A stretch of DNA of 32,000 bases from Pirellula staleyi DSM 6068 (GCA_000025185.1 CP001848.1:4440001-4472000), one strand, 5' to 3'. Positions 1 to 25,455 are shown, counted from the first letter of the stretch. Translations and numbers: made by a program. The notes: a model not told the origin generated them from the sequence alone.

Positions 1-1
1 G

Positions 2-3000
2 GCTGGGCTGCTGCTCCCGGTCGATCTGCTCGCGCGCATTGTCGACGGCGATCCCAACCTGCCGGGCCTCACCCCCAAGGATTACCACCTGCGCTCTGGC
101 GAACGGCTCAATGAAGCGGCCAGCCGGGCCTGGAATGAATGCCTGGCCGCCTGGAAGTCGTTTCGCAAGAAGTTCGCCTCTCTTCCAGCCTCGGATACCG
201 GCACCACGCTCACCCGCGATGAATGGCTGTTGCCGCTGTTTCAGGAACTCGGCTACGGGCGTCTGCAACCCAAGCGAGCCATCGTCATCGATGGCAAGGA
301 ATACCCGATCAGCCACGGTTGGGAAGATCACGTCCCTATCCACCTGCTGTCAGCTCGCTATTCCATCGACCGCCGCACGCCGGGGGCCGCCGGGGCGGCC
401 ACCCGTGCCCCGTACAGCCTGCTTCAGGAGCTGCTCAACAGCAGCGGCCAGCATCGCTGGGGATTTGTCACCAACGGTCTCAAGCTCTACCTGCTGCACG
501 ACAACGCCGCCCTCGCGCGGGCCGCGAATGTCGAATTCGACCTCGAAGCGATGATGGACGGCGAACTCTACGCCGACTTCATGCTGCTGTTCCTGCTCTG
601 CCATCAATCCCGCGTCGAGATTCAGCCCACGCCGATTGCCAAAGTCACCCTGGATCGGAAGACCGGCAAGGCCAAGAAGGCGAAAGCCACGAGTCAGAAG
701 AAGCTGGTCACCGATGACGATGCCGAAGCCGGTGAAGGCGACGACTCCGTCGACGCGGAAGCAGAAAAGACCCGGCTTGGTCCGGAGAACTGCTGGCTGG
801 AGCGCTGGGCCAATCAGGCTGATCAGCAAGGGACCCGCGCCCGCGACAAACTACGAGATGGCGTCGAAGCGGCGATCAAGTCCCTCGGAGCCGGTTTCCT
901 GACCACCAAGGGGAATCAGGCACTTCGCGAGCGGATGCGGACGGGCGAACTGTCGACCCAGGACTATTACCGCCAGCTTCTCCGCGTCGTCTATCGGCTG
1001 CTGATGCTGCTCGTCGCCGAGGAAAAGAAGACCGAGAACGGGGCCAACCTCTTTCATCCCCCCGGCACTCCGCCCGAGGTCACCGACCGTTACGCCCGCT
1101 TCTACTCGGTCAGCCGCATTCGCACGCTGGCCTACGAGCGGCGCGGCACCGCTCACACTGATCTGTATGAATCGCTCAAGGTCCTGTTCCTCAAGCTGCG
1201 CGAGGGGTACGCCCCGCTGGGCATTCCCGGCATGGGTTCGTTTCTCTTCTCGGACGACTCCACGCCCGATCTGGACGACGCCTTCCTCGCCAATCAGGAC
1301 TTGCTCGATGCCTTCCGGAATCTCTGTTACACGGAAGACACATCCGGGCGCGGCGGCAGCATTCGCCGTCCGGTCGACTTCGGCAGCCTCGGCAGCGATG
1401 AACTCGGCAGCGTGTACGAATCGCTGCTCGAACTGCATCCCAAGATCGACACCGATGAGGGGCCGTTCACGCTCGGCACGGCGTCCGGTAACGAACGCAA
1501 AACGACCGGTAGCTACTACACCCCGACCTCGCTCATCAACTGCCTGCTCGACTCGGCCCTCGATCCGGTCGTTCACGCCGCCATCGATGTTCCTGATCGT
1601 GCCGAGGCCGAACGCAAGCTGCTCAATCTGAAAGTCTGCGATCCGGCGTGCGGCAGCGGACACTTTCTGATCGCAGCCGCTGAGCGAATGGCGATGCACC
1701 TGGCTAGGCTGCGGACCGGCGATGACGAGCCGAACACGCTCGATGTCCAGCACGCCAAACGCGACATCATCGGCCGCTGCATCTACGGCGTCGACATCAA
1801 CCCGATGGCCGTTGAGCTGTGTAAGGTCGCCCTCTGGATGGAAGCGATGGAGCCGGGGAAGCCGTTCTCGTACCTCGAACATCACATCCAGTGCGGCAAC
1901 AGCCTGCTCGGAACCACACCCGCGCTGCTCGCCAAGGGAATCCCCGACGATGCGTTCACGGCGATTGAAGGAGATGTGAAGTCCCGCGTCAGCGAACTGA
2001 AGAAGCAGAACAAGAAAGAGCGGCTGGATCGCATCAATCGGCAAACGGAGATGTTCGAGCCGCCGTTGAAACTCGGCAACCTCTCGTCAGAGTTCGTGCG
2101 GCTAAACATCCTGGAAGACGACTCGATCAGCGACATCCGCTCGATGGAAGAGCGGTACACGGCCCTCGTTCGCGGAGCGGACTACCAGAACGCCCGGTTG
2201 CTGGCCGATACGTGGTGCGCGGCGTTCGTCTGGAAGAAGGATGACTCCGATCTCGGCAAGCTCTGCCCCACCGAGCGCGACTTCCGCAAGGTCGAATCAC
2301 ACGCCGCCGCTGGTCTGTTGCCTCACGTCCGCACCGAAGTCGAACGCCTGCGAAACCAATACCAGTTCTTTCACTGGCATCTGGCGTTCCCAGACGTGTT
2401 CCGTTTGCCGAGCCAGGACGAGCAGCCAGGCAACGAACATACAGGCTGGAACGGGGGCTTCAATGTTGTCCTCGGAAATCCGCCGTGGGAGCGAATCAAC
2501 ATCAATCAAAAGGAGTGGTTCGCCAGTCGATCGCGAGAGATTAGTGGTGCTTCTAACGCCGCATCTAGGCGAGCGGCAATCTTGCGGCTTTCATCGACTG
2601 ACCCTGTCCTTCAGCAGCATTGGAAGGACGCGATTCGCGAAGCCGCCGGAAATACTCATCTATTGCGAGACAGTGGGGGGTTCCCGTTGTGCGGACGCGG
2701 TGATGTAAATACTTATGCCGTGTTCTGTGAACTTAATCGAGCGATTATTGATTCGTACGGAACTGTTGGCTGCATTGTGCCGCCAGGAATTGCGATGGAC
2801 GCGACCACCCAAGACTTTTTCCAAGACCTTGTTCGCAATCAGTCTCTAATCGCAGTGTTCCATTTTGAGAACGAAGCCAAAGTATTTCCAGGTGTTCACC
2901 ATGCTTTTCGGTTTTGCCTGTTCGTCATCGGTGGCAATCGACGGGTAACCATGACTCCAGTATTTGTTGCATATGCCAGATCCGTTGACGATCTCCGTCA

Positions 3001-4849
3001 ACCCGATCGTCTATACGCGATGAGCAAAGCTGAGTTTCAACGGCTGTGTCCAAACACCGGGACATTTCCTGCATTTCGCAGCCGGAGAGATGCAGAGTTA
3101 ACCAAGCTAATACATGCAAAGGTTCCGGTCCTTATCCGCCATGCCGCAGAAGACGGAAACCCTTGGCAATGCGAGTTGCGACGCATGATACACATGTCCG
3201 ATGACGCCGAATGTTTTTCAAATAAAGATGCAATGACTCGTGAAGGCGCAGTTTTATCAGGAAATATATTCGTCGTCGGCAACGAACGCTACCTTCCGCT
3301 TTACGAAGCAAAGATGTGCCACATTTTTGATCACCGTTATGGTACGTACGCGGGCCAAACTGAGGCACAAGCCCAACAGGGATCTCTTCCAAACCTGTCC
3401 GCAGGGGACCACGCCGATCCTTCATGCTTCCCGATGCCCCGATATTGGGTTCCTGAAAAGGAGGTCGGGAATAGACTCAGAGACCTCTGGAAACATAGGT
3501 GGCTTCTCGGGTGGCGAGACATCACTGGCTCCGAAAAGAGTCGTACTGTTATTGCGACGGTCATCCCTTGCGTAGCAGTTTCGGGGTTCCATCAGATTTA
3601 CCTGCATTATGCTCCGTATCTTGCGGGCTGCGTGTGTGCAAATTTGTCTTCGTTTGTCTTGGACTTTGTATCCCGCCAGAAAGTGGGTGGTACTCACTTG
3701 ACCTACGGGATTCTTGAACAACTACCGATTCTACCACCCGATTCTTACTCAAAGCCATGTCTGTGGTCCGGAAAAGACTCGCGGGTTGAAGCGTTTCCGT
3801 CTCTTGATGGATGGCTGCTGCCTCGCGTCGTTGAACTAACCTACACAGCGTGGGACTTGCAGCCATTCGCGCAGGACTGCGGATACGACGGGCCGCCGTT
3901 CCGCTGGGACGAAGAGCGTCGCTTCCAGCTCCGTGCGGAACTCGACGCCGCCTTTTTCCATCTTTACCTCCCCAGCGATGCCCAAGGCGACTGGCTCCCC
4001 GCCGCCAACGAATCCCCGGACGACCTCGCCCGGCTCAAGGAGAGTTTCCCCCAGCCACGCGACGCCGTCTCCTACATCATGGACACCTTCCCCATCGTCC
4101 GCCGCAAAGACATCGCCAAACACGGCACCTACCGCACGAAGGACACGATCCTCAACGTCTACGACGCCATGCAGACCGCCATCCGCACCGGCATCCCCTA
4201 CCAAACGATTCTCGATCCCCCGCCAGCCGATCCACGCGTCGCGCATCCAGCGCGTGAGGCGGCCGTCGTCCCACTCAGATCGGTGGTAGTCGATCCGGTT
4301 TTTCCGAAGACGGATTTGGAGAAGGTGCTGTGCGCCTGTTTACTCGATTTCGTGACGTCGCAGCCAAGTCTAAAGGAGGACGAATACGTCGATCTGATGA
4401 TCCTCGCGATGCAGCCTGCGAATTGCCGTTTGCTCCTGACAGGCGATGAACGCGACCGCTTCGACCAATTCCTGACGGCGGTCTTGCCCGAGTTGATCGC
4501 CGACAGTGACGGAAAGCCACCGTGGCGTATGCTTCTTTCGACGTTTCGGGCCAATCTGTCGATTCAGAGAGATCGCTTCGCCCCAGGAGCCAACGCCCAG
4601 ATCGTTCGCGGAAAACTGCCGGATGTCAACGGTCAGTTCGTGGCACTGGTCCTGAAGGCAGGAGAGCGCTTGCGAGAACTTCAGGAAGCTGCCACTCCTC
4701 ACGATGGACCATCAACGCCGCCGCCGATAGGAGTCCGCAGTGCGCGAAAAGTTCGGGATGACGCTCCAACTGATCCGGCGTTGGTCAACTTGGTCAATTC
4801 GGTAAAGAACCACCGAATGGCGGCCATGAGTGGAGCTACTTCGGCATGA
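2..4849 (+). CDS. Large Eco57I/type IIG-like N6-adenine DNA methyltransferase with post-catalytic specificity region and C-terminal extension; 5' end outside window
   Basis: The frame is open from nt 2. Residues upstream of the track Met at 230 read ...LTPKDYHLRSGERLNEAASRAWNECLAAWKSFRKKF...TRDEWLLPLFQELGYG and continue the protein. SAM-binding motif I VCDPACGSGHFL lies at 1634-1669 and catalytic NPPW at 2477-2488. A TRD-like block follows (WRDITGSEKSRTVIATVIP), then a conserved-looking C-terminal GTYRTKDTILNVYDAM and about 250 aa more. The TGA stop overlaps the next start (ATGA 4846-4849). Confidence 0.85.
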   Translation, partial: AGLLLPVDLLARIVDGDPNLPGLTPKDYHLRSGERLNEAASRAWNECLAAWKSFRKKFASLPASDTGTTLTRDEWLLPLFQELGYGRLQPKRAIVIDGKEYPISHGWEDHVPIHLLSARYSIDRRTPGAAGAATRAPYSLLQELLNSSGQHRWGFVTNGLKLYLLHDNAALARAANVEFDLEAMMDGELYADFMLLFLLCHQSRVEIQPTPIAKVTLDRKTGKAKKAKATSQKKLVTDDDAEAGEGDDSVDAEAEKTRLGPENCWLERWANQADQQGTRARDKLRDGVEAAIKSLGAGFLTTKGNQALRERMRTGELSTQDYYRQLLRVVYRLLMLLVAEEKKTENGANLFHPPGTPPEVTDRYARFYSVSRIRTLAYERRGTAHTDLYESLKVLFLKLREGYAPLGIPGMGSFLFSDDSTPDLDDAFLANQDLLDAFRNLCYTEDTSGRGGSIRRPVDFGSLGSDELGSVYESLLELHPKIDTDEGPFTLGTASGNERKTTGSYYTPTSLINCLLDSALDPVVHAAIDVPDRAEAERKLLNLKVCDPACGSGHFLIAAAERMAMHLARLRTGDDEPNTLDVQHAKRDIIGRCIYGVDINPMAVELCKVALWMEAMEPGKPFSYLEHHIQCGNSLLGTTPALLAKGIPDDAFTAIEGDVKSRVSELKKQNKKERLDRINRQTEMFEPPLKLGNLSSEFVRLNILEDDSISDIRSMEERYTALVRGADYQNARLLADTWCAAFVWKKDDSDLGKLCPTERDFRKVESHAAAGLLPHVRTEVERLRNQYQFFHWHLAFPDVFRLPSQDEQPGNEHTGWNGGFNVVLGNPPWERININQKEWFASRSREISGASNAASRRAAILRLSSTDPVLQQHWKDAIREAAGNTHLLRDSGGFPLCGRGDVNTYAVFCELNRAIIDSYGTVGCIVPPGIAMDATTQDFFQDLVRNQSLIAVFHFENEAKVFPGVHHAFRFCLFVIGGNRRVTMTPVFVAYARSVDDLRQPDRLYAMSKAEFQRLCPNTGTFPAFRSRRDAELTKLIHAKVPVLIRHAAEDGNPWQCELRRMIHMSDDAECFSNKDAMTREGAVLSGNIFVVGNERYLPLYEAKMCHIFDHRYGTYAGQTEAQAQQGSLPNLSAGDHADPSCFPMPRYWVPEKEVGNRLRDLWKHRWLLGWRDITGSEKSRTVIATVIPCVAVSGFHQIYLHYAPYLAGCVCANLSSFVLDFVSRQKVGGTHLTYGILEQLPILPPDSYSKPCLWSGKDSRVEAFPSLDGWLLPRVVELTYTAWDLQPFAQDCGYDGPPFRWDEERRFQLRAELDAAFFHLYLPSDAQGDWLPAANESPDDLARLKESFPQPRDAVSYIMDTFPIVRRKDIAKHGTYRTKDTILNVYDAMQTAIRTGIPYQTILDPPPADPRVAHPAREAAVVPLRSVVVDPVFPKTDLEKVLCACLLDFVTSQPSLKEDEYVDLMILAMQPANCRLLLTGDERDRFDQFLTAVLPELIADSDGKPPWRMLLSTFRANLSIQRDRFAPGANAQIVRGKLPDVNGQFVALVLKAGERLRELQEAATPHDGPSTPPPIGVRSARKVRDDAPTDPALVNLVNSVKNHRMAAMSGATSA

Positions 4850-6879
4850 CGATCCTCAAGAAGTGCGACCTCGCTTCCAAACGATCCGAGCCTTCGGTCT
4901 GGATCAGCAAACTGGCGTTGTTTGAATCCCTCGATCCCCTGACACCGATCCGGGAACCGATAAAGTTTCACACGGGGCTGAACATCGTCTGGGGCGTCGA
5001 GAACGAAGCCAACGACGAGAAGTTCGAACCAGGCCACGGCGTTGGCAAGACTACCCTCTGTCGGCTGATTCGGTACTGCCTCGGTGAACCAACCTACGGA
5101 CAGTCGCATGCGGCCAAAGAGATTCTGAACACGTTTCCCGATGGCCACGTCGCCGCAGAGGTCTACATTCAGGGCCGGCGCTGGGCAGTATTGCGTCCCT
5201 TCAACAAGACCCGCGCGGACCGCGCACAGGGCGACGCCACAATCACGGAGCTGCTTGCCAATCCACCGCTCAAGGAGTCATTCCGTGAGTATCAGAATCT
5301 GCTGGCGTCAACTTGCCTCTCCGGACTCAGCACTGATGGCGTGCTGACTGGTGGGGCCTCGATCGAATGGCTCCATCTGCTGGCCCTGTGTTCTCGCGAT
5401 CAGGAGGCTCGCTACCAGAGCCTGTGGCAGTGGCGTTCACCGCGAAGCGATTCGGCCCCTCGAAACATTCAAAAAGATGACGCCCATCTGACGCTGCGGT
5501 CCGTCCTCGGCCTGCTGCCCGATGAGGAAACCACGCTCCAGAAGAAGTTAGCAAAGTACGACAGCGAACTCGCCCAGGTCGAGAAGGACATCGCCGAACG
5601 CGTCCGCGAACCTGAGTACTGGACACGGCACTACCGTCAGACTTTGGAACGCGACTTCAAGATCAAGGATGCGACAAACGCTTCTCTCCAACCTAATGAC
5701 TTGTACGGGATTCCCGAACTCGTGAAGGCAGCCATCAGCAAGCGAGATCAAAAACAGATCGAACGCAGTACGAGACTGGACGAACTTGAGCGGCACATTG
5801 CAATGGCCGGTAGCCTTTTGCTCGAACCCGCAGAGCATCAACAATCCGTCGAGGCCGCCGGGAATGTTACCAAAGCTGGTGCAGATACATTCACGGAAAG
5901 CGTTGAGGAGTTGCGACGACTTCGAAAAGAAATCGAAGACATGGGGATCTGGCCCTGCAAGTACGCCCACCCTCTATTGATTGGGAATTGTCAGCACACA
6001 AATCAGAGGCTCGTTAGTCTCGATTCCGAGATTCGCGATGCCTCAGCCCAAGAGCTTCCAAAATCTGCCAGGAAAGACCAGCAGGCCGCGGCGCTTCGTC
6101 AACAATCGGAACGCCAGAAGACTGGCCTGACGAAGCAACGTGAGCAGTTGGACGCTTACATCAAAGAGCGTCGCGCTCTGAACGACAAGCGGATCGCCGC
6201 AGACAAGGACATCCGGGCGTTGCGAGCAGCGCTAACCAGCCTGGAAACATGGGAACAGATTCGCACTGGAATGGTTCCTGACTCGGACCTCGCACAACTT
6301 CAGAAGCGAAAGAAGAGTCTGGAAACCAGGCAGACAACTGCGAAGGGACAGCTGACAGCTCTTCTCGCATCACAGGATCAGTCGCTCACGAAACTACGGA
6401 CTGTCTACGAAGCGCTTGCCCGAAACACGCTTTCAACCGAATTCAACGGGCGTGTTCTGCTCACGAGCGAGGGCCTTGAATTCCGCGTGTTTCGGGGCGA
6501 GAACCTTTCCGGGGAAGCCTTTGAGACTCTTTCGATCTTGCTGGCCGATATCGCGGTGCTACTGATGGGATCGCTCGGCGCTGCGTCTCACCCCGGAATC
6601 CTGATTCACGACAGTCCGCGAGAGGCGGACCTGGGCGGTCATATCTACCGCCGACTTCTTCTCTCCGTGGCTGAAGTGGCTGGTGAACTAGCGGTTGACG
6701 ATACCGTTCCGTTCCAGCAAATCGTCACGACAACGACGCCGCCTCCCCCGACGCTGAAGAAGAAGGCAACAACCTGCCTGAAGCTCGGTGGAGAAGAAGG
6801 GCAGTTGTTTCGCAGGCAGTTGCATGCGATGGCCACGACTCAGCAGTCCTTCGGATTTGACATGGAGAATGGCGAATGA
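4846..6879 (+). CDS. SMC/Rad50-like ABC ATPase with long coiled-coil insert
   Basis: The N-terminus FHTGLNIVWG...PGHGVGKTTLCRLIRYCLG contains a Walker A motif. The middle (aa ~230-520) is charged and heptad-rich. The C-terminus has a signature-like NLSGEAFETLS followed by a Walker-B-like PGILIHDSPREADL (Asp-Ser rather than Asp-Glu). ATGA overlaps occur at both ends (4846-4849 and 6876-6879). Confidence 0.75.
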   Translation: MTILKKCDLASKRSEPSVWISKLALFESLDPLTPIREPIKFHTGLNIVWGVENEANDEKFEPGHGVGKTTLCRLIRYCLGEPTYGQSHAAKEILNTFPDGHVAAEVYIQGRRWAVLRPFNKTRADRAQGDATITELLANPPLKESFREYQNLLASTCLSGLSTDGVLTGGASIEWLHLLALCSRDQEARYQSLWQWRSPRSDSAPRNIQKDDAHLTLRSVLGLLPDEETTLQKKLAKYDSELAQVEKDIAERVREPEYWTRHYRQTLERDFKIKDATNASLQPNDLYGIPELVKAAISKRDQKQIERSTRLDELERHIAMAGSLLLEPAEHQQSVEAAGNVTKAGADTFTESVEELRRLRKEIEDMGIWPCKYAHPLLIGNCQHTNQRLVSLDSEIRDASAQELPKSARKDQQAAALRQQSERQKTGLTKQREQLDAYIKERRALNDKRIAADKDIRALRAALTSLETWEQIRTGMVPDSDLAQLQKRKKSLETRQTTAKGQLTALLASQDQSLTKLRTVYEALARNTLSTEFNGRVLLTSEGLEFRVFRGENLSGEAFETLSILLADIAVLLMGSLGAASHPGILIHDSPREADLGGHIYRRLLLSVAEVAGELAVDDTVPFQQIVTTTTPPPPTLKKKATTCLKLGGEEGQLFRRQLHAMATTQQSFGFDMENGE

Positions 6880-7886
6880 GCAATTCACGTACGGTGACAG
6901 AAAGAAATGCGATTGCGGCCGTTCAGCGTTATGTCGAATCCGATTGGTTCAGCCGTTGGCAAGAGTTCGAGGCGAGAAACGACGATGGTGTCGATGGCAT
7001 AGTCTTCCTACGCAAGAAGAAGTTGGACAAGAAGAGCAATAAGCCTGACAAGGCACCTGGCTATACATCATTGCCGATTCGTGGGGTATTGTTCGTGCAG
7101 GTAAAGGGTGGCGAAGGCTATGCCGGACAATCGCAAAAGCGACCGGACCACATAGAGATCAACCTTGGCGAGGAGTATATCAACAACCATCGCCCTCGAT
7201 GGGATGCGCTACCAGGGCCTGCGATTCTTGTTTACGTTAACACGGCCAATCTCAAGCAGAATCTCGATGCGTGGTGGACAGACCTGAAAGTTGATTCAAC
7301 CTATTCGGATGATAACAAGCAGATCGTGCTTGTCCCCAAATCACAAAGATTTGGACCACACTCCAAGGGGCACATGAGACGGCTTCTTGGACCTGAAACT
7401 CAGTACGATGCACATCTGCATCCTCTCACAGCCGTCCATAAAGACTCGTCATACGTCTCCATTGTCCTTCCCCTGAAAGCGTGTGCTCGGAGCTTCTATC
7501 GAGAGTGGTCAGTTCTACCGGCTTCGGAACGCACACATCCAGGGCTCGGAGAGATTCTCGTGACGCGAAACGGATGGCGACACATCACAAGGAAGGGCCG
7601 AAGACACGAGCGTATCGTTCAGTCATTGCAACTGCTCGGTATTGCCAAGCGGATGATCAAGGAAGTTAAGGACGTCGGTTGGGTTGGTCGAATGGAAGAA
7701 CGCCAGCTAAAAAATGGGACAATTCAGCGGCGCGAGTTGTTAGGCATCCGAGCAAGGGTCAAATTCCCCTTCCGGCAGGAGAGTGTGATCCAAGTGATTC
7801 TCGAACGAAAGCGGATATATGGAAAGAGTCTGATCTCAGAACGAACCACGTTTTACTCAGTCTACGAAGCAAGGCGGGGGAAATAA
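6876..7886 (+). CDS. DUF4365-like PD-(D/E)xK nuclease-fold protein with unassigned basic C-terminal half
   Basis: ERNAIAAVQRYVE...EARNDDGVDGIVFL...GVLFVQVKGGEGY fits the DUF4365 pattern (E..a..v ... D.G[IV]DG ... vQvK). The C-terminal ~170 aa (..VTRNGWRHITRKGRRHE..FYSVYEARRGK) are not recognised. The start overlaps the upstream stop (ATGA). Confidence 0.6.
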   Translation: MSNSRTVTERNAIAAVQRYVESDWFSRWQEFEARNDDGVDGIVFLRKKKLDKKSNKPDKAPGYTSLPIRGVLFVQVKGGEGYAGQSQKRPDHIEINLGEEYINNHRPRWDALPGPAILVYVNTANLKQNLDAWWTDLKVDSTYSDDNKQIVLVPKSQRFGPHSKGHMRRLLGPETQYDAHLHPLTAVHKDSSYVSIVLPLKACARSFYREWSVLPASERTHPGLGEILVTRNGWRHITRKGRRHERIVQSLQLLGIAKRMIKEVKDVGWVGRMEERQLKNGTIQRRELLGIRARVKFPFRQESVIQVILERKRIYGKSLISERTTFYSVYEARRGK

Positions 7887-8043
7887 AAAAGGACACGTAC
7901 CAGTGCGATTCAGCATTCTTACGTCGAAACGCAGGTCTGTTAGGCAAAGGCCGTGTCCAACCGCGAGTTTACGATAGCCTTTCCGTCGAAGCAAGGCTCG
8001 GAAAAAGTTGGCGTGTCACTTCAGAAAAAGAAGCGATTGAGAT

Positions 8044-11000
8044 ATGAAGAAGCGAAAGCGGAAGAAGGAAAAATCTCCGAAGAAGCCGGTCGCTCAGCAG
8101 CCGAGTCTGTCGAGCGACTTCGTTTCCATGAAGGCGATGTACCAGGCATATCAAAAAGCCAAAGTCGACGTCTTCTACGAGCGTTCGCAACCGAGGTCGC
8201 AGGAGTTTTGTGAATACGAACGAAACCTGCACGCCAATCTCACCGCACTGCAGAAAACCCTGACTCGGCCTCGTACCAATTGGTTCAAAAGCAACGACTT
8301 CATTGGTAGTTACGGGTTCATTCCCAAAGGGTTGCAGATTCCTGAGCCCGATGGGGATCAGGACAGCGCCGCGCACTTCAGCGTGTCCAATCCTGACGAT
8401 GCTTGGAATGTGATGATGACGTCCCTTGGAGAAAAGAGGCCCATCGCTGAGTTCCGGCCTGTCGCGCTATTCACCGTCAATATGTATGTCGTGTGTGCAC
8501 TGTGGGTGAATCTTGTCGGTCACATGTTCGATGCCTGCCTCGACAGTTCTGCTCGTGGGACACGGCTGAGGCGTCTCCGGCAGACTGATGAAGAACTCCC
8601 GGAATGCGGCCGCTATCACCTTTCTGCTCCGGGTTCGTTCAAACCCTATTTCAGCTGTTACAAGGAATGGCGTGAGAAGGGGCTACGAGCCATTCGGCAG
8701 GAACTGGCCAAGGATCGCAAAGTCGTCGCCATAACGATGGACCTCAAGGCGTTTTATCACAACGTCGATCCGAAGTTCATCCTGAATGAGAAATTCCTCG
8801 ATGCAATCAGATTCAGTAATGTAAACGGTAGCGGGCTTTATGCTGCTGAGGAACGTATTTTCACTAAACAAATTGTCACTGCGTTCCTGACTTGGGCAAA
8901 GAAACTGCCCCATCTCAAAGCCGATACGCCACCCGGCCTTCCCGTTGGGGTTTCCGCCGCTCGGATCGTCGCGAATGTTCTGCTCGCCGAGTTTGATCGA
9001 CTCGCCCAGCAGAAACTCGATCCGATCTACTATTCGCGGTACGTCGACGACATCTTCCTGGTATTGCGCGACAACGGGAGAATGCGGACTTCTCGGGATG
9101 TCTTGAAGCACCTCTGCCGCAGAATCAAGCCCTTGAACGCCAACGACGACCTGTCCGTACTGACGCTGGCGTTTCCTTACTCCAATGGCTGCAAGCTCTT
9201 GTTTCAGGCAAAGAAGCAGCGTGTGTTCCTGCTTTCAGGAGAAGTGGGGGCCGACCTGCTTGATACAATCGAGAGTCAGATCGACGCAGTTTCCAGCGAA
9301 TGGCGGCTTCTGCCCGACCTCGATGCCTTGGAAAAATCACCTGCGGCCAAGATTCTAACAGCGACCCGCCGCGCCGATGAGAACGCAGATACCCTTCGCA
9401 AGGCTGACCAGTTGTCGCTGAAGCGACTCAGCTTCTCGATCATGCTGCGCCAGTACGACACGCTGGCGCATGATCTTCCTCCGAATGAGTGGAAGCGTGA
9501 ACGAAAGAGGTTCTATCGGTTTGCGGAACGCCACGTTCTGACACCTCTGAGGCTCTTAGATCTGAACGACTATCTACCTCGCCTCCTCGGCTTGGCTGTT
9601 TCCTGCCGGGACTGGACAGTCGCAGGCGGTTTTCTCAAGCGAATTTCGGACGGGATTGAACGACTTCGCAACAACGTGAGTGTAGAGCCGAACGCTGGCG
9701 CAGACAGCCAGTGGGAAGCTTACCTCCGACATCTTCAGACGGCCCTCCGCGAAGCGGTTGTTCGATCCTATCCGCTGAAACAAGACAACCATGCTGCTGA
9801 AAATGCTGCGAAATCTCTCCTCGAAGTGATTGATGCCCTGAATCCGCTGTCATTAAGCAATCCCCAGGATATTTCAGCTTTGTCGTGTGAGCTGTTCTGG
9901 ACCGATCTGGGGCGTATTCCATTCAAAAATGCGTTGCTCGGATATGTTTCGCTTCCACCCTGTACTCTGAAGCCTTTGAAAAGGAAACTTCCTAAGAGTC
10001 AAATGAAACGACTCGGTGTCATCCGGGAATTCCTTCGCGGAGCCGACACGGCCGATATCAAGGTGCAACCGCTTCTGTTTCCAACGCGTCCATTCTCGCC
10101 CCGTGAAATAACAGAATTCGACTGCCGGAGCGCATGGGAACTGGATCGACTCAGGGATTACGTAGTCGCCCTGCGCGGAACCTGGGTAAAGCCGGTCGCC
10201 CACACTTCAAGAGCTGCCAAAACCGCTCCCGCGCCCGAAAGTGGTAGCCCCAAAACTCGCGAAGTGCTGGTTTTCGGTGATGGCAACCGAAAGCATGTTC
10301 CCAGAATTGCAATCACGAGTTTTCTAACCGAAGAATCCAGTTGGGCGAAAGCAGCGGAGGGAACTCCAGAGTTGTCTGCCGAGCGGTACAAGCGTCTCGT
10401 CAGGCTAGCAAATGCCGTCGTAACTTCACCTCATCGAGCGGAGTATGTCGTTTTCCCGGAATTGTCGATACCTCGCAGGTGGCTTCCTGGATTGGCAGGA
10501 CTGTTTATAAAAGCCGGGATATCGCTGATCACGGGCGTTGAGTATCGACGTGTCCCGCCAGAGCCTTCATCACAGGTGGTCAATGAGGCTTACCTCGTGC
10601 TGGCAGACGACCGGCTTGGCTACCGGTCCTGGTGTGTCGTGAGACAGCAAAAAGGCGTTCCTGCACATCACGAGCGAGACGAATTGCGCAGCAAGTTCGG
10701 ACTCACCTTGGCTGCACCTGCCTCGAAAGACGACCCGAAGCCAATCTACCGCCATTTCGGGCATGGTTTCGGGGTCCTGATTTGCAGCGAACTCACCGAT
10801 ATCCGCTTTCGGCAAGAGATGCGCGGCGATGTCGACACGCTGTTTGTGCTCAGCTGGAATCAGGATTTGGAATCGTTTGGGGCACTGGTCGAGGCCGCTG
10901 TTCTGGATGTTCATTGCTACATGGTGCTCGTCAACAATCGGAAGTACGGAGACAGTCGCGTCCGAACGCCATCCAAGAAGAACTGGATGAGGGATCTGGT

Positions 11001-11178
11001 TCGGATCAAGGGCGGGCTGGACGACTATTTTGTGGTCACCGATCTGGAAATCATGTCGCTCCGCAATTTCCAGAGTTACCACGAACCTCCACTTGGTGAT
11101 GACGCCTTGTTTAAGCCGACACCTGAGGGGTTCAAGATCGCCACACGTAGGAAGCAAACACCACGAGGCAATCCGTGA
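8044..11178 (+). CDS. Reverse transcriptase fused to a C-terminal nitrilase (carbon-nitrogen hydrolase) domain; DRT1/UG1-like defence RT
   Basis: RT motif A is VVAITMDLKAFYHNVD, motif B is GLPVGVSAARIVANVLLAEFD, and motif C is YSRYVDDIFLV (YVDD at 9040-9051). An Abi/UG-type N-terminus is present (AMYQAYQKAKVDVFYE...NLHANLTALQKTL). The nitrilase triad candidates are VVFPELSIP (Glu), RQQKGVPAHHE (Lys) and GVLICSELTD (Cys codon 10783-10785). The start is uncertain: ATG 8044 gives a Lys-rich leader MKKRKRKKEKSPKK, and an alternative ATG lies at 8128. Confidence 0.85.
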   Translation: MKKRKRKKEKSPKKPVAQQPSLSSDFVSMKAMYQAYQKAKVDVFYERSQPRSQEFCEYERNLHANLTALQKTLTRPRTNWFKSNDFIGSYGFIPKGLQIPEPDGDQDSAAHFSVSNPDDAWNVMMTSLGEKRPIAEFRPVALFTVNMYVVCALWVNLVGHMFDACLDSSARGTRLRRLRQTDEELPECGRYHLSAPGSFKPYFSCYKEWREKGLRAIRQELAKDRKVVAITMDLKAFYHNVDPKFILNEKFLDAIRFSNVNGSGLYAAEERIFTKQIVTAFLTWAKKLPHLKADTPPGLPVGVSAARIVANVLLAEFDRLAQQKLDPIYYSRYVDDIFLVLRDNGRMRTSRDVLKHLCRRIKPLNANDDLSVLTLAFPYSNGCKLLFQAKKQRVFLLSGEVGADLLDTIESQIDAVSSEWRLLPDLDALEKSPAAKILTATRRADENADTLRKADQLSLKRLSFSIMLRQYDTLAHDLPPNEWKRERKRFYRFAERHVLTPLRLLDLNDYLPRLLGLAVSCRDWTVAGGFLKRISDGIERLRNNVSVEPNAGADSQWEAYLRHLQTALREAVVRSYPLKQDNHAAENAAKSLLEVIDALNPLSLSNPQDISALSCELFWTDLGRIPFKNALLGYVSLPPCTLKPLKRKLPKSQMKRLGVIREFLRGADTADIKVQPLLFPTRPFSPREITEFDCRSAWELDRLRDYVVALRGTWVKPVAHTSRAAKTAPAPESGSPKTREVLVFGDGNRKHVPRIAITSFLTEESSWAKAAEGTPELSAERYKRLVRLANAVVTSPHRAEYVVFPELSIPRRWLPGLAGLFIKAGISLITGVEYRRVPPEPSSQVVNEAYLVLADDRLGYRSWCVVRQQKGVPAHHERDELRSKFGLTLAAPASKDDPKPIYRHFGHGFGVLICSELTDIRFRQEMRGDVDTLFVLSWNQDLESFGALVEAAVLDVHCYMVLVNNRKYGDSRVRTPSKKNWMRDLVRIKGGLDDYFVVTDLEIMSLRNFQSYHEPPLGDDALFKPTPEGFKIATRRKQTPRGNP

Positions 11179-11321
11179 AGGACTGCGTCTGAGCGAGGAT
11201 CGCGTGATAGTGAAGGCAATCTTGAAAAAAAGCGATGCAACCAACCAGACTCAGAAGTATGAGAGTTCTGAAGCTGGAGGAACTACAAACCGCCGGCTGG
11301 GCACCGTAAACTAAGTACTCC

Positions 11322-13304
11322 ATGGACTATTCAAAGACAAATAATACGGCCTCAAAAATGCCTGCTGTCGGACAGCAAGTAGCGCTGAACATGTTTCCGC
11401 TGATCGACCAACGCTTCCCGTTCAAAGTATTTCGACGTCTGGCAGAGGCCAACGAAGGGGCACCGGATGAAGGAATCCGCAAGTATTCACTCCCGCCGAA
11501 CGGTACGGTCCAGGGCACCGACGATCCTTGGCCGCAGTTCTGGGTGTCGTTTGAGGCCAGAGACGGCTTCCTTCCATTTGCGGGTGATGCCAAAACAAAC
11601 CCGCATCTCGCGATGGCATTTCTGTTTCACCTATTGGTTGTCTCAGCCAAAGCATCGGGGCTAGAGCACTTCATTCAGGATGGAATCAAGAAAAAGGTTG
11701 CATTTGTTCTCGACACACATCCCGAGGGAAAAAGTTGCGTTTGGCTTTCACCGTATCAGTGCCGGTCCGCTCGCTCGATTGGTTTCCTGGTCGATTTCTG
11801 GTTCCGCAAGGAAGAGGTACAAGCCCTGAATCGCGAAGTTCTGCGCCTCAGTCATGCGCTTAACGCTCAGTATCGCGAAAACACGGACTTTTACGCGACA
11901 CGATATGCGTCACTTCAGCAGTTCCTTGATCGCATTTATCCTAGCCTGTTTCCGCTACAGTTATCTGAATACCCGCCGATGGATATTCGCAAGACCCTTC
12001 AAAACGTCGACTCCTCACTTCTGAAAACAAAGATGTACTTGGCGGGAGGTTCAAAGCCTTCATCGTCTCAATTCACCGCTGTCAAACTGGACGGACCGAT
12101 TCAGCGTGTGACAGGAGACGTTCGTATTTGCTTTGTGTATCAACCGCAAGACAAACCCCTCTCTCACGACCTCTACAAAGCACTTCGCGGGGACACATAC
12201 AGTCAGTTTCTCGGCATGGAGAGGATGTTTGGGTTCAGCTTGGGAAAGGAGCACGTCTTCGGCATACCAATTCAAGACTACTCTCCTGACGAACTGGCGA
12301 CGGCAACTACGGCTATCAAGGCGCAATCGGGTGGGGCACTGGTCGTTCCGATAGTTCTGATTCCGTGGTTGCGGCATGACACCGAAGACTTTTCTGACCA
12401 ATATTATGTCACAAAGCACGCCTTCTTGAAGGCAGGGCTTCCGTCACAGTTTGTCTCTACCAAGACAATCCGAAATAAGGCGTCGTTCAAGTGGACTGTC
12501 AGCAACATTGGTATGGCCGTCTTTGCCAAACTTGGTGGGAAGCCTTGGAAAGTGGTCTCGGAGAATGATGACTGCTTGATTGTGGGAATCGGCCAGTCCC
12601 ATCGTTGTGGTGAAGACAAGACGATTAGTCGGTACTATTCCTATTGCGTACTTACCGATTCCAGCGGGTTGTATGAAGACGTGCGTGTACTTGGAAAGGA
12701 TACCGATGAGCGCTCTTACCTGACTCGTTTTGCCGACAACTTGTTAGAGATATTTCGTGGGCATTCGCAGCAGTTCAGTCGCTTTGCTATTCACACGCCG
12801 TTCAAGCTCCGCCACGAGGAAATGACGGCAATTCAGGATGCAATAACGCGATTCACTCTCGAAACGCGACGACCGATGACATTCGCCGTTCTGAAGTTCA
12901 ACGCCGATAGCGATTTCATTGGATATTCTGCGACCACTAATGCACGCGTCCCGTTTGAAAGCACACTTGTTCCACTGTCTTTTCAGGATTTCCTCGTCTG
13001 GTTCGAGGGATTGCAATTCCACAAGAGTACCGTGGAACGTCGCTATGGCCGCCCAGTTCACGTTGAGTTTATCTATCCGCATTTCGACCGAAAGAGTCGC
13101 GGTTCCGGCTTGTCGTTGGAACAAAAGAGCGTCTATTTGCAGGACAGCCTCAATCTCTCTGGGGCAAACTGGAGGGGCTTCAATGCAAAGTCTCTTCCCG
13201 TCTCGGTCTTTTACGCGAAGCTCATCGCGCGATACTTCAGCCAGTTTGAACGACTCGGCCTTGAGGAGTGCGAATTGGATAACCTAACACCATGGTTTCT
13301 GTGA
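11322..13304 (+). CDS. Catalytically inactive prokaryotic Argonaute (MID-PIWI preceded by only ~270 aa)
   Basis: The PIWI hallmark NIGMAVFAKLGGKPWKV is present (KLGGKPW at 12528-12548). The first slicer Asp position reads LIVGIGQSH (Gly codon 12591-12593). The RDG-type site reads FAIHTPF. MID-like features include DLYKALRG and YYVTKHAFLKAGLPSQFV. The C-terminus ends ...LTPWFL. Confidence 0.8.
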   Translation: MDYSKTNNTASKMPAVGQQVALNMFPLIDQRFPFKVFRRLAEANEGAPDEGIRKYSLPPNGTVQGTDDPWPQFWVSFEARDGFLPFAGDAKTNPHLAMAFLFHLLVVSAKASGLEHFIQDGIKKKVAFVLDTHPEGKSCVWLSPYQCRSARSIGFLVDFWFRKEEVQALNREVLRLSHALNAQYRENTDFYATRYASLQQFLDRIYPSLFPLQLSEYPPMDIRKTLQNVDSSLLKTKMYLAGGSKPSSSQFTAVKLDGPIQRVTGDVRICFVYQPQDKPLSHDLYKALRGDTYSQFLGMERMFGFSLGKEHVFGIPIQDYSPDELATATTAIKAQSGGALVVPIVLIPWLRHDTEDFSDQYYVTKHAFLKAGLPSQFVSTKTIRNKASFKWTVSNIGMAVFAKLGGKPWKVVSENDDCLIVGIGQSHRCGEDKTISRYYSYCVLTDSSGLYEDVRVLGKDTDERSYLTRFADNLLEIFRGHSQQFSRFAIHTPFKLRHEEMTAIQDAITRFTLETRRPMTFAVLKFNADSDFIGYSATTNARVPFESTLVPLSFQDFLVWFEGLQFHKSTVERRYGRPVHVEFIYPHFDRKSRGSGLSLEQKSVYLQDSLNLSGANWRGFNAKSLPVSVFYAKLIARYFSQFERLGLEECELDNLTPWFL

Positions 13305-14605
13305 TGCCACCCAAATCGAACACAGTCTTTAAGCGAGACGAAATCGTCTTGCTCCTCGGTGCAGGAGCTAGCGTTCCAGCGCAGATTCCGGCATCGCAGG
13401 GGATGATTACGGAAATCGAGAAACTACTGGATTCCTCATGGGCCGACTACAAGAGCCTTTATTTCTTTGTGAAGAGTGCCATTCAGTTCTCAGACGGCAT
13501 TCATGGGCGATTCGACACAGATACTTTCAATGTCGAGAAGCTTGTAGAAACGCTCGATGACTTGAGGCGCGGCGACGAACATCCGCTTTACCCATTCGTC
13601 GGTGCATGGGTGCCCAAGCTATACGAGGTTGCTGGTTCAGACCTGAAAAAAGTCACTGCCTTCCGTGAAGAGATTGTTCGTCGACTCCGCGACGATTGGA
13701 TCCAACTGAAGTATCGAGAACACGCTCAGTATTTCGCTCACCTTGGGCGGTTTCAACGAGAGCTACAGGAACCTCTCCGCTTGTTTACATTGAATTACGA
13801 CTTGTGCGTTGAGACAGCATTGTCGGATGTATCGGACGACTCGTCGATCACATTTGAGCGAGGATTTGACGAGCAAAAAAGGTGGGACTGGCGTCGATTC
13901 GAGTATGAGCGCGGAGTCGGTCCGCCAGATATTTACTTGTATAAACTGCATGGATCGATTGACTGGACTCGCGACGATAATGACAACCTCACTTATCGTG
14001 ATGCAGTGTCTCAGATCAATCCGGAGGACTTGGCGATTATCTCCGGAACGCCAGCGAAGTTGCAGGCGGTCGACCCATTCCTTTTTTTCGCGTACGAACT
14101 TCGCAAATGGACGCTAGAAGAGGCTCGACTGATCGTAACGATCGGCTATGGTTTTGCCGATGACCATATCAATGGGATTCTCCGGCAGTCTCTAAAAGGA
14201 AATCCTGCACGGCAACTGCTTGTCGTTACGTTCATTAAAAACAATGAAAACGCGGAGGAAGTCGCACACAAACGCCAATGCGAGATCGCTCGCAAGATTG
14301 GCATGTTTAAGGACGACGAAGATAATCGCCAGCACCCAAACTATCAGATTATTGTGTGGGGGTGTGGTGCGAAGGAGTTTCTTGAAAAGAAGCTTACTAT
14401 AGAGGGCTTGGGAGGACTGTTCCCGGCAGAAGACACTTTGTTCGATGAAGTCACTATCAACCACCTTTTGAGTGAACCACCGCAGGTTGGGCAACTGGAC
14501 CCTTCTGAAAATGGTCAATCAGGCAATAAAAATATCGATTCTTTAGCATTAGTTGAAACCGCGAAACCTAAGAGAACGAGAGGGCGGGGCCGGTCGAAGA
14601 AATGA
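13292..14605 (+). CDS. SIR2-family (SIR2_2-type) protein, putative NADase effector
   Basis: Motifs are VLLLGAGASVPAQIPASQGM (13358-13372 encodes GAGAS), LFTLNYDLCVE, YKLHGSIDW (His codon 13949-13951) and VTIGYGFADDHINGIL. The gene overlaps the Argonaute stop by 13 nt, or by 1 nt if ATG 13304 is used. It ends in a basic tail KPKRTRGRGRSKK. Confidence 0.8.
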   Translation: MVSVMPPKSNTVFKRDEIVLLLGAGASVPAQIPASQGMITEIEKLLDSSWADYKSLYFFVKSAIQFSDGIHGRFDTDTFNVEKLVETLDDLRRGDEHPLYPFVGAWVPKLYEVAGSDLKKVTAFREEIVRRLRDDWIQLKYREHAQYFAHLGRFQRELQEPLRLFTLNYDLCVETALSDVSDDSSITFERGFDEQKRWDWRRFEYERGVGPPDIYLYKLHGSIDWTRDDNDNLTYRDAVSQINPEDLAIISGTPAKLQAVDPFLFFAYELRKWTLEEARLIVTIGYGFADDHINGILRQSLKGNPARQLLVVTFIKNNENAEEVAHKRQCEIARKIGMFKDDEDNRQHPNYQIIVWGCGAKEFLEKKLTIEGLGGLFPAEDTLFDEVTINHLLSEPPQVGQLDPSENGQSGNKNIDSLALVETAKPKRTRGRGRSKK

Positions 14606-15170
14606 CAGTAGCCTGTTGGAAAACTCGATAACAACGCAGTTATCCCTTAGGATTCCCGAAAAAGTCGCGCGGCTTCAATTTCAGGCGGGATTTTCAACAA
14701 GCTGCTTTGGGATTCTTCAACGAAGTAAATCGACAGATAGCTCGCGCTGAATGTGAAATTGACGCTGGGCATACAATAGCGGCGTTGGCGATAGGCGAAA
14801 GTGTCTTCAGCCACCGTTTCCTAGACGATAATCGCCCCTTATCTTGGCTGCCGACTATCGGGAAGTTCTTTCGCCAACTTCTGCAGGATCACTTCGGTGG
14901 TGAGGGCGGCGAAGATGCGAGCGTCGTTTTCTTTATCTACTAGCGTCGCTCTGTTTATGTGACGTCAAGTTCCTTGTGAAGGAAGTGTCCGTTCGGTCAA
15001 GCGCGTTATGGATATTCACGGTTGAGGCGTCGGGAGGTGGCTTTCTTGGGCGAGAGGAGGTGGGCAAGGTTTGCAGCGGGCGAACTGCGAGCGGCTGAGT
15101 GTGTGGGCGGGAGCGATTGCGGGAAGTGGGCGGCGGGTCTTAGTGTGATCGATTAACGCTGCGGAGAGCG

Positions 15171-15602
15171 TCATTGCGGAGCCAGCGGCTCCGCAGCATC
15201 TTCCGCTTTCCAGATGTCGGGCAGGAACTGCGCGAGTTCATTGGCGGGTGTCTGACCGATCTTGGCCAGAACGCTCGTGAGGTACGCCTGCGGATCGACG
15301 TTGCTGCGCTCAGCGCTGGCGAGGAGCAAACACAGCTTCGCGTGGCTCGCAGCGGCCGCTTCGTTACCAGCAAAGAGCCAGTTTTTGCGGCCGATCGCCA
15401 CGCGCTTCAGCGCCCGCTCGCTGGCGTTGTTGTCGATGTCGAGGAAGCCTCGCGTGGTGTAAGTCGTCAGCGCCGTCCACTGGTTCTGTACTTCGCGCAT
15501 CGTCGCGCTCACCGAGTCGACCATCACGCTCGGCGATCGTTCTCCGCCAGGCATAAATCGCCGACTCGGCCAGCTGTTCGCGGCGACAGAACTCGCGCAC
15601 AC
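15171..15602 (-). pseudogene. IS66-family transposase, C-terminal fragment only
   Basis: ...REVQNQWTALTTYTTRGFLDIDNNASERALKRVAIGRKNWLFAGNEAAAASHAKLCLLLASAERSNVDPQAYLTSVLAKIGQTPANELAQFLPDIW matches the conserved IS66 transposase C-terminus. The DDE core is absent. Confidence 0.75.
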
Positions 15603-15699
15603 TTAACTCGCTAGAAGCAAACCGCTGAAACACCCCACGCCAAAAACCTTCCCTCGCCGAACCCCGCTGCTGCCGCGCCATGCCAAAACTCCTGGTCAC
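15364..15699 (-). pseudogene. IS66-family accessory (TnpA-like HTH) N-terminal fragment
   Basis: Only the first ~55 codons look genuine (MARQQRGSAREGFWRGVFQRFASSELSVREFCRREQLAESAIYAWRRTIAERD). After about nt 15535 the frame runs out-of-frame over the transposase C-terminal fragment, which marks a deletion junction. Confidence 0.55.
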
Positions 15700-15761
15700 A
15701 AAAACCAGCAGCTTGACACCCCACCACCTAAATCAAAACCCGCACTCCACGGAACGGATAC

Positions 15762-20579: not shown

Positions 20580-20595
20580 TCATTTTCTCCTGGAT

Positions 20596-21171
20596 GTGCC
20601 CACAAGATTCATCGGTTCGCAAATGCTAAAAATCTCGACCCCAGAGTACACGCCGCATAGCCACCGGAAAACGACGATTGGTGCGATTAAGGGCATTCGC
20701 TGCACGATGTCTGGTCCATCATGCACAAGTTGCAGAAATGAGTTGATGATGACTGAACTTAATCCGCTCGATGCAGTCGCTTTGCTCCGAGAGATTCGTA
20801 CCCATCTTCCCACGCCCGTGCGTGAAGAAATGCAACTTGATGGATCATTGGTTTTCGTTGGTGGCGATCCAGGCGAAGTCGTCGTGCGAGTACGAGGAAA
20901 CAAGGTGTCAGTGGCCGTCTTCGGTGTCGTCTGGAAGGGCCCGCACACGCCAGTAGTGCGCCCATCCTTAGTTGGCAGCCTGAACTGGAAGCGGCTTCCA
21001 GCTTCCCGGCTAACAATAGGACTTCACATTCTCCTAGAGTCAGCTCGCAAACTTCGCCTTGCAAAGTACCGCAAGTGCAAGCGATGCAGTGAAACCAGGC
21101 CGCCTGAGTGGATGCACGACGACAAGACGTGCCAATCGTGCGTTGAGAGGTTTTTGGGAATTGTTCACTGA
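20596..21171 (+). CDS. Hypothetical protein with C-terminal CxxC...CxxC zinc-ribbon-like motif
   Basis: The C-terminus reads KCKRCSETRPPEWMHDDKTCQSCVERF. The composition is protein-like. The start is uncertain: ATGs at 20707 and 20746 are more compatible with a divergent promoter for the STAND gene. The ORF competes with antisense ORFs. Confidence 0.4.
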   Translation: MPTRFIGSQMLKISTPEYTPHSHRKTTIGAIKGIRCTMSGPSCTSCRNELMMTELNPLDAVALLREIRTHLPTPVREEMQLDGSLVFVGGDPGEVVVRVRGNKVSVAVFGVVWKGPHTPVVRPSLVGSLNWKRLPASRLTIGLHILLESARKLRLAKYRKCKRCSETRPPEWMHDDKTCQSCVERFLGIVH

Positions 21172-21319
21172 ACACGCCCATGCTCAAAGATTCCATCGGC
21201 GATGAAAATGGAAAGCGATACCACGCTGCCTCGCCGCCGAAAGCACCGCCCGCCCACAGCTACCTTCACCGACGGGTAGACTCTAAGTCGGGGACGTTGG
21301 GAAGATTGATCGGCATGAT

Positions 21320-21631
21320 TTACCTGTGATAGCCAGCGATCACAGCGGCCACCACTTCATCGCGACCACCGAGCCAAGCGACCATTTGACAGACGATCCT
21401 GTTGAAGAACTTGATCAGATGACCGAACAGCCATTGAGGTTGGCGAACCTTATTGGAAAGGTTCGCAAGGTAAGCACCAAATTGCGATACTGCATCTGCT
21501 TGAGTCACGGCAAAGCTCCAAAGATTGAAGCTGCCGGAGCTGCGAGCACATAAACACGAGAGCACGCTCAGAGCAGCATAGGCTGTAAGGGTGCCCGCGA
21601 TCATCGTCGGGCTGGTGGGGCCGAGGCCCAA
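21320..21631 (-). CDS. Hypothetical small protein (possibly membrane-associated)
   Basis: This is ORF evidence only. The start in the ORF track is TTG, with an internal ATG near 21604. The hydrophobic N-terminus reads MIAGTLTAYAALSVLSCL. No motif was recognised. Confidence 0.25.
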   Translation of the reverse strand: MGLGPTSPTMIAGTLTAYAALSVLSCLCARSSGSFNLWSFAVTQADAVSQFGAYLANLSNKVRQPQWLFGHLIKFFNRIVCQMVAWLGGRDEVVAAVIAGYHR

Positions 21632-25449: not shown

Positions 25450-25455
25450 CACGGA

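Follow-up and report, generated by a model that had tools for sequence, protein, structure and literature searches.

Stacked defence modules, probably joined once at a decayed hsdR end, in place of a coupled reverse transcriptase-Argonaute system in Pirellula staleyi

The stretch analysed here, called the window throughout, comprises 32,000 nucleotides (nt) of the genome of Pirellula staleyi DSM 6068 (GCA_000025185.1, CP001848.1:4440001-4472000). It encodes a reverse transcriptase (RT) fused to a nitrilase, which is followed on the same strand by a prokaryotic Argonaute (pAgo) and a SIR2 gene. A first-pass annotation had proposed that the RT might be functionally coupled to the pAgo, and had kept simple stacking in a defence island as the null hypothesis. 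The coupling is not supported because the adjacency fails to recur in related genomes, while the null hypothesis is supported by this non-recurrence and by the relic of a type I hsdR gene at the junction. The locus therefore very probably consists of separate, self-sufficient anti-phage modules that are stacked in one orientation in a defence island and were joined by one recombination event. Six open reading frames (ORFs) stand head to tail on the + strand, from the 5' edge of the window to 14605. The RT-nitrilase gene lies directly upstream of and co-oriented with the pAgo-SIR2 pair, and the ORFs agree exactly with those annotated before. The features at the junction are the following (lengths in amino acids, aa).

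8044..11178, + strand: predicted UG5-large RT with C-terminal C-N hydrolase (nitrilase), 1044 aa; Pfam RVT_1; PADLOC RT_UG5-nitrilase 3e-283
11179..11321, + strand: putative remnant of a type I hsdR 3' end, decayed by frameshifts and by a deletion of 6 nt, former stop codon at 11312-11314; read earlier as an intergenic spacer
11322..13304, + strand: pAgo of the long-B type, predicted to be catalytically inactive, 660 aa; PADLOC pAgo_II 8e-216; Pfam Piwi
13292..14605, + strand: Sir2_2-domain effector, a bAgaS-like predicted NADase, 437 aa; PADLOC Aga_SIR2 (class II) 2e-124; Pfam SIR2_2 1e-12

The RT-nitrilase had been assigned to UG1/DRT1, which does not agree with the profile searches. The PADLOC profile RT_UG5-nitrilase is matched over positions 19-902 of 907, and no other distinct group scores better than 1e-29. 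The Drt1a (UG1) profiles match only residues 794-1006, which belong to the nitrilase part, and they do so weakly (2e-29 and 3e-10), and PADLOC RTasNitrilase covers residues 758-1031 (3e-46). Because Drt1a is confined to the nitrilase part whereas the UG5 match runs over the full length, the protein is classified from its sequence as a UG5-large enzyme, a DRT11-type member of the class 3 UG/Abi RTs, and not as UG1/DRT1. The nearest solved structure is DRT1 (9yfd), again matched over the nitrilase part only. The complete RT motifs and the nitrilase Glu-Lys-Cys triad reported before are indeed present, and the palm residues D233 (motif A) and G302 (motif B), the YVDD at 333-336, and the triad E806/K870/C914 are invariant in 58 homologues. 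The view that the mechanism of RT-nitrilases is unresolved is out of date. According to a 2026 paper DRT1 and two UG5-type enzymes, DRT5S and DRT5L, perform template-free, protein-primed synthesis leading to covalent, semirandom DNA adducts; for DRT1, the DNA synthesis is described to switch on the nitrilase and to make dormant filaments assemble, with defence being abortive (PMC13275509). UG5-large has been validated as the stand-alone system DRT11, which is sufficient for defence in Sinorhizobium, needs the RT and nitrilase domains alone, and for which no non-coding RNA template was found (PMC13436386). A gene for a small transmembrane partner does not stand beside the RT in the window, where the upstream spacer has only 157 nt and the downstream 143 nt are the hsdR relic. 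Such a partner is optional in UG5-large (31 of 299 members, PMC9226505), and it is not a required feature of the group since DRT11 is active without it (PMC13436386).

The SIR2 gene overlaps the pAgo stop by 13 nt. The two PIWI strands GIGQSH (422-427) and AIHTPF (489-494) of the pAgo, which we take to be the strands carrying the catalytic aspartates in active Argonautes, judging from the GxDVxH and RDG motifs, do not contain any acidic residue. An alignment to a PIWI segment of human AGO2 succeeded in the C-terminal part only, and its sole use here was to note that acidic residues are missing from the two Asp-bearing strands. Judged by its missing DEDX tetrad, the pAgo is thus predicted to be catalytically dead. 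Its closest solved relatives are AfAgo, EcAgo (from BPAN), and RsAgo, which are all inactive long-B proteins. The SIR2 protein retains the motifs of the NAD site (GAGAS at 23-27, N168, and H220). By its sequence the pair is assigned to the described BPAS family, which combines a long-B pAgo with a Sir2_2 protein. All characterised inactive pAgos use 5'-phosphate RNA guides and recognise single-stranded DNA (ssDNA), and the Sir2_2 partner in BPAS depletes NAD+ (PMC10620215).

The earlier annotation had suggested comparative genomics as a check on whether RT-nitrilases recur beside this pAgo clade, and had counted an absence of recurrence as refuting its proposal. In the loci sampled they do not recur. 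For the pAgo side, a profile built from 56 homologues was used to collect the 80 best species-level genome loci (31-42% identity), 75 of which have at least 1 kb and 69 at least 3.2 kb of upstream sequence. Neither tblastn nor a profile search gave a hit to the RT or nitrilase in any of these 80 loci, none of which has an RT-nitrilase within 10 kb, and the SIR2 gene follows directly downstream on the same strand in all of them. For the RT side, a profile from 58 homologues yielded the 80 best metagenomic loci (27-56% identity), of which 57 provide at least 1 kb of downstream sequence. Here, the pAgo and its SIR2 were searched by tblastn, and the pAgo also by profile, and were not found near the RT in any of the 80 loci. 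A published survey of 1,385 pAgo-encoding genomes does not mention RTs among the neighbours, while HsdS is listed as operon partner and as a frequent "DNA-binding" neighbour (PMC6299218).

The close relatives, which were taken from metagenome look-ups, are a sharper test of the pairing than the two samples of 80 loci. The pAgo homologue with 80% identity (L086) is found directly after a BREX brxL gene, those with 76% (L084) and 74% identity (L085) directly after type I hsdR, and one with 51% identity (L173) after a XamI/Eco57I restriction-modification (R-M) pair. From the other side, the RT homologues at 85% (L168), 84% (L087), 79% (L169), 70% (L170-172, Rubinisphaera), 63% (L174), 55% (L142), and 51% identity (L175, Roseimaritima) are all without a pAgo. 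The adjacency is common only to L081-083, which represent one organism in three samples and whose RT, pAgo, and SIR2 are 88%, 89%, and 84% identical to those of the window, respectively. These loci carry the same hsdR-relic junction as the window. Other RTs do occur near relatives of the pAgo in defence islands (L085 and L045) but belong to different families, and were rejected as support for a link to RT-nitrilases. In L085, a 508-aa AbiP2-type RT (5202-6728, PADLOC 4e-198) is located inside the type I R-M operon that contains the 74%-identical pAgo-SIR2 pair together with RhuM and Abi_C genes, and is another case of cargo in hsd operons from a different RT family. An unrelated 470-aa RVT_1 protein is encoded 4.4 kb upstream of the pAgo in L045.

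The distance of 143 nt between the RT stop and the pAgo start (11179-11321) was confirmed, and so was the 6-bp hairpin (TCAGAA at 11251-11256 and TTCTGA at 11266-11271). A strong promoter or terminator in the gap, which the annotation had named as a refuting result, was looked for and not found on the + strand, using an E. coli sigma-70-like consensus that may miss planctomycete promoters. The fold of the whole gap is no better than that of shuffled sequences (z = -0.33), and the gap does not match any Rfam family. A structured RNA or a terminator in the gap was therefore rejected. Read-through transcription is probable because the gap does not contain a recognisable terminator, and we consider it somewhat better than an even chance that pAgo-SIR2 is transcribed at least in part from the RT gene. 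Co-transcription of the RT and pAgo-SIR2, as proposed earlier, is plausible.

The content of the gap was revealed by comparison to the relatives. The gap of the window and the orthologous 160-nt gap of L081 can be aligned with the last approximately 130 nt of hsdR in L085 so that the stop codons coincide. When compared with the C-terminal end of the L085 HsdR, the L081 relic still reads SDSIRANLGVMKKAILKKQGYPPVKQ… and then, past a frameshift, …QAELPCACWAS*. A tblastn search with HsdR against the L081 gap resulted in E = 2e-06, with the match beginning at the RT stop codon, and the frameshift-repaired L081 peptide matches the Pfam family T1RH-like_C with E = 2.7e-06 and 27.4 bits (curated cut-off 26.8 bits). 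This family represents the domain at the C-terminus of type I R subunits. At the nucleotide level, the L081 gap aligns to the hsdR 3' end with z = 12.8 (0 of 2000 shuffles as good), and the gap of the window with z = 3.4 (12 of 2000). The relic in the window is more decayed than that of L081, with …DRVIVKAILKKSDATNQTQ… and VLKLEELQTAGWAP* being read from two different frames, and a direct tblastn search of HsdR against the gap of the window gave nothing significant. The gaps of the window and L081 are 76% identical and differ by several frame-breaking indels. Since the four-fold-degenerate sites of the flanking genes are 56-73% identical between the two, the gap drifts at close to the neutral rate. 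Conservation between the window and L081 is better in the final approximately 45 nt ahead of the pAgo ATG than in the remaining relic, and the ATG at 11322 itself is kept in L081 and L086.

Compared to the pAgo-less RT locus L087, the homology of the window ends at the RT stop codon. The shared hsdR relic together with this end of homology indicates that the junction was formed once. The gap is therefore read, from these alignments, as the decayed 3' end of an hsdR gene, a pseudogene relic that would mark a recent recombination junction, and a dedicated regulatory or RNA element was not found in the RT-pAgo linker, which is a decaying hsdR end without unusual fold or Rfam match. In L168, whose RT is 85% identical, only the first approximately 55 nt of the relic are present (z = 8.7) before the sequence diverges, and the 5' sequence of the pAgo is absent. 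This suggests that the cassette was later lost or replaced in L168, whose contig extends only about 100 nt past the expected pAgo start.

The relic matches the habit of the pAgo clade to reside in hsd operons. Type I R-M operons surround pAgo-SIR2 in 27 of 85 loci (numbered among L001-L086), for example in L009, L013, L023, L028, L031, L046, L064, and L078, and the usual order is hsdM-hsdS-[pAgo-SIR2]-hsdR; the HsdM, HsdS, and HsdR identities were confirmed by Pfam for representative members. The gaps between hsdS and pAgo range from -24 to +51 nt, and the pAgo often starts within a few nucleotides of the hsdS stop or overlaps it. Counting all contexts, the pAgo lies less than 100 nt behind its nearest upstream neighbour, encoded in the same orientation, in 36 of 82 loci, and often the distance is just a few nucleotides or the genes overlap. 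The place of the cassette between hsdS and hsdR is the same that the PrrC anticodon nuclease holds in the EcoprrI hsd locus.

On its other side, the RT gene is preceded by a block of three genes and a stem-loop:

1..4849, + strand: large N6-adenine methyltransferase, Eco57I/DrmMI/type IIG-like; Pfam Eco57I 6e-19 and N6_Mtase 2e-09; PADLOC DrmMI 1e-56 and REase_MTase_IIG 1e-39; the frame is open to the 5' edge of the window, and the first start codon is at 230
4846..6879, + strand: SMC/LmuB-like ATPase, whose start overlaps the methyltransferase stop; PADLOC LmuB 4e-17
6876..7886, + strand: DUF4365 protein, a predicted PD-(D/E)XK-type nuclease, whose start overlaps the ATPase stop; Pfam DUF4365 9e-26
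7891..7958, + strand: 68-nt stem-loop just 3' of the DUF4365 stop, outer stem GGACACG/CGTGTCC, near-identical in L170-172

The order methyltransferase-ATPase-(DUF4365)-RT is kept at RT identities of 88% (L081), 84% (L087), 70% (L170-172), and 63% (L174). Methyltransferase homologues precede the RT, in the same orientation, in all of these loci and in L104, L139, L143, L151, and L152. In L087 and L170-172, an ATPase homologue of 68-69% identity immediately precedes the RT or the DUF4365-RT pair, and an LmuB-like protein of 647 aa occupies the ATPase position in L174. DUF4365 could have been an insertion specific to the window given its absence from L081 and L087, but this was rejected because a 74%-identical homologue has the same position in Rubinisphaera (L170-172). 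A helicase, DpdE/DrmD-like or DEAD, is often encoded further upstream of the methyltransferase-ATPase-RT block. Among the 83 loci of the broader set, 48 of which extend more than 3 kb upstream, a PglX/DrmMI-type methyltransferase is the commonest neighbour of the RT, one cluster accounting for 21 loci and a second for nine. The RT is also found alone, between genes on the opposite strand in L142 and in ordinary surroundings in L175, and beside other neighbours at 85% (L168) and 79% identity (L169). Judged by these contexts the RT probably behaves as a mobile single-gene module, which agrees with DRT11 needing only its RT and nitrilase domains (PMC13436386).

In five metagenomic loci, L112 (8057-14799), L113, L116, L133, and L137, a UG5-large RT is situated inside a split BREX PglX gene. 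The N-terminal half comprises residues 1 to approximately 600 and the C-terminal half residues 620-1173, both are separated from the RT by gaps of 6-9 nt, and the whole is part of a BrxC…PglZ-BrxL operon. In L138 (240-3761) this methyltransferase is uninterrupted, and the RT follows it directly. The PglX halves are just 37-51% identical between the five loci, and the split arrangement therefore looks old and stable. The 68-nt stem-loop has copies in L170 (9764-9831), L171, and L172, the rest of the DUF4365-RT spacer being unalignable, and is absent where DUF4365 is absent (L081 and L087). The stem-loop folds with modest z-scores (-1.9 and -1.3). In L174, whose RT is 63% identical, the region behind the RT (13149-21642) encodes a KAP-NTPase/AlbA_2 protein and a complete ZacA-ZacB-ZacC set (PADLOC 1e-84 to 6e-254), and a stub of 45 aa belonging to DUF6361 (ZacA-like) is found right after the RT in Rubinisphaera (L170, 13138-13275). 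The complete Zac set in the one and the stub in the other imply that the downstream side of the RT has repeatedly been remodelled.

Combining these observations, we envisage three modules. The first would be the block of methyltransferase, SMC-like ATPase, and DUF4365 nuclease, with which the RT travels in several planctomycete lineages. The second would be the UG5-large RT-nitrilase, which by analogy with DRT1, DRT5L, and DRT11 may produce template-free, protein-primed DNA adducts and use its nitrilase as abortive-infection effector. The third, pAgo-Sir2_2, would by analogy with the inactive pAgos load 5'-phosphate RNA guides from the transcriptome, recognise ssDNA of the invader, and deplete NAD+. 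These enzymatic activities are taken from the literature on homologues. The ancestral site of pAgo-SIR2 would have been directly after a type I hsdR, and a single recombination in a recent ancestor would have joined a segment, reaching from approximately 40 codons before the hsdR stop through pAgo-SIR2, to the RT gene right after its stop codon. Neither the RT-nitrilase nor pAgo-SIR2 would need the other.

The opposite view, that the RT-nitrilase produces DNA serving as guide or target for the dead pAgo and that the three genes form one system in this lineage, can draw on the co-orientation of the genes, their distance of 143 nt without terminator-like site, and the conservation of the arrangement in one approximately 88% identical relative. 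In addition, ssDNA targets trigger inactive pAgos (PMC10620215), and the RT family yields ssDNA (PMC13275509). However, the arrangement does not recur over the 160 sampled loci or in the close relatives of either side, a single event left the junction as a pseudogene scar, and L168 appears to have lost the cassette again. The DNA made by the RT family is semirandom, template-free, and attached to the enzyme, and is thus a poor source of sequence-specific guides (PMC13275509), while characterised inactive pAgos use RNA and not DNA guides (PMC10620215). Each module also works alone in heterologous hosts (PMC13436386, PMC10620215). We thus regard such a coupling as very improbable. It is less far-fetched that the RT-nitrilase is a functional part of the methyltransferase/SMC-like ATPase/DUF4365 block, in an RM-, DISARM-, or Lamassu-like multi-gene system, with pAgo-SIR2 as unrelated cargo. 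The gene order conserved from 88% down to 63% RT identity, the related methyltransferase directly upstream of the RT in 21 of the 83 more distant loci (48 with more than 3 kb upstream), and the RT inside split BREX pglX in five loci would all fit. But UG5-large alone suffices for defence in Sinorhizobium (PMC13436386), the RT has other neighbours or stands alone at 85%, 79%, 55%, and 51% identity, and unrelated defence genes are known to insert into R-M and BREX operons, so that the adjacency may reflect an insertion preference only. We consider this multi-gene system doubtful.

Concerning expression, pAgo-SIR2 could also be driven by a promoter of its own, lying either in the relic of hsdR or in the RT gene's 3' end, with no regulatory linkage to the RT. 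The better conservation of the 45 nt before the pAgo ATG would be in line with this, and a portable promoter would be useful to a cassette that is found behind many different upstream genes in the relatives; planctomycete promoters may moreover escape the sigma-70-like consensus of the scan. A promoter-like site was however not found in the gap, and the pAgo starts less than 100 nt from a same-strand upstream gene in 36 of 82 loci leave little room for a promoter and suggest operon riding. Fully independent expression is thus possible but the less likely situation. Going further in the direction of operon riding, one could suppose that the pAgo-SIR2 cassettes of this clade are operon-tail riders, placed at the 3' end or in the interior of first-line defence operons (type I R-M, BREX after BrxL, type II R-M, and here the RT-nitrilase), expressed by read-through, and acting as second-line guards like PrrC in the hsd locus. 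The P. staleyi junction would then be one more case, and, more speculatively, ssDNA made by the RT or failure of the upstream system might lower the firing threshold of the pAgo. We think that this reading has only a slim chance of being correct.

Several points weigh against the stacking of independent modules. Given that the gap does not contain a terminator, the three genes may be on one transcript, and their co-expression could permit some interplay within the lineage. In the window, the signal of the relic is weak (z = 3.4) and rests largely on the DNA alignment and on orthology with the clearer L081 copy, and the conserved approximately 45 nt before the pAgo ATG could be a functional element. 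The samples consist of the best 80 loci per side and not of all relatives, and the reading as a whole stands on sequence comparison.

The G+C content of the window is 49-56% over 2-15 kb and approximately 60% in the flanks. The right-hand boundary of the pAgo-SIR2 segment is formed by transposase remnants:

15171..15699, - strand: truncated IS66-family transposase remnants; Pfam DDE_Tnp_IS66 profile positions 229-283 of 284 only, plus IS66_C

These are followed by a convergent gene for a 1605-aa protein (15762-20579, - strand) with a weak NACHT/STAND signature and without PADLOC match, and a Schlafen/AlbA_2 protein is encoded at 25402-26469. The STAND-like gene, the Schlafen/AlbA_2 gene, and the IS66 remnants may represent more defence-island cargo. 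Behind the pAgo-less RT of L087 there is a convergent STAND gene for 1812 aa, which would frame a simple insertion if it corresponded to the 1605-aa gene, but this was rejected because the proteins do not show BLASTP similarity. Ordinary planctomycete genes (DUF1501 and DUF1553) start from approximately 28.6 kb on.

An RT whose DNA feeds an inactive Argonaute would have constituted a new supply route for guides or targets and a new composite immune system, but the evidence says otherwise. Both modules match existing defence-system profiles over the full length and are assigned to families already described, UG5-large/DRT11 for the RT and BPAS for the pair. Their adjacency is best understood as a one-off product of recombination. 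The locus is a worked example of an "intergenic spacer" that appears to be a gene fossil, which both dates and explains the junction. The genomic contexts provide two leads, the presence of pAgo-SIR2 within type I R-M operons, and that of UG5-large RT-nitrilases beside or inside PglX/DrmMI-type methyltransferase genes.

Among the known systems, the RT-nitrilase resembles the UG5-large DRT11 of Sinorhizobium meliloti RMO17 in its length of about 1000 aa, the N-terminal RT with YVDD, the middle extension, and the C-N hydrolase fused at the C-terminus, which has the E-K-C triad. The RT-nitrilase shares with DRT11 the absence of a transmembrane partner, and it sits in a variable defence island. 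In contrast to DRT11, the P. staleyi protein is planctomycete with 35-38% identity to the proteobacterial members, stands behind the methyltransferase-ATPase-DUF4365 block, and is known here from sequence. DRT1 (UG1, Klebsiella pneumoniae; PDB 9yfd) has the same design of RT plus nitrilase, and the P. staleyi RT probably shares the class 3 mechanism, by which DNA adducts are made without a template and primed on the protein (PMC13275509). UG1 proteins are however 1200-1300 aa long (PMC9226505) compared to 1044 aa in P. staleyi, and the priming serine of DRT1 was reported not to be conserved in other class 3 RTs (PMC13275509). The pAgo-SIR2 pair is like BPAS (long-B pAgo plus Sir2_2; GbBPAS, Song et al. 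2023, PMC10620215) in that a co-oriented Sir2_2 gene comes immediately after the gene of an inactive pAgo. The P. staleyi pAgo has 660 aa compared to 731 aa in EcAgo and approximately 780 aa in RsAgo as typical long-B proteins, its N-terminal half thus being reduced, and its clade is known from sequence. SPARSA (short pAgo plus SIR2-APAZ) also combines a dead pAgo with a SIR2 NADase, but there a short MID-PIWI pAgo is preceded by SIR2-APAZ or fused to it, so that the gene order is reversed here. The best profiles here are pAgo_II and Aga_SIR2 "class II", and the pAgo has an N-terminal region of approximately 345 aa. Like PrrC in the EcoprrI locus, pAgo-SIR2 is often embedded in type I hsd operons, and the window keeps a relic of that context although the hsd genes are gone save for this 3' end.

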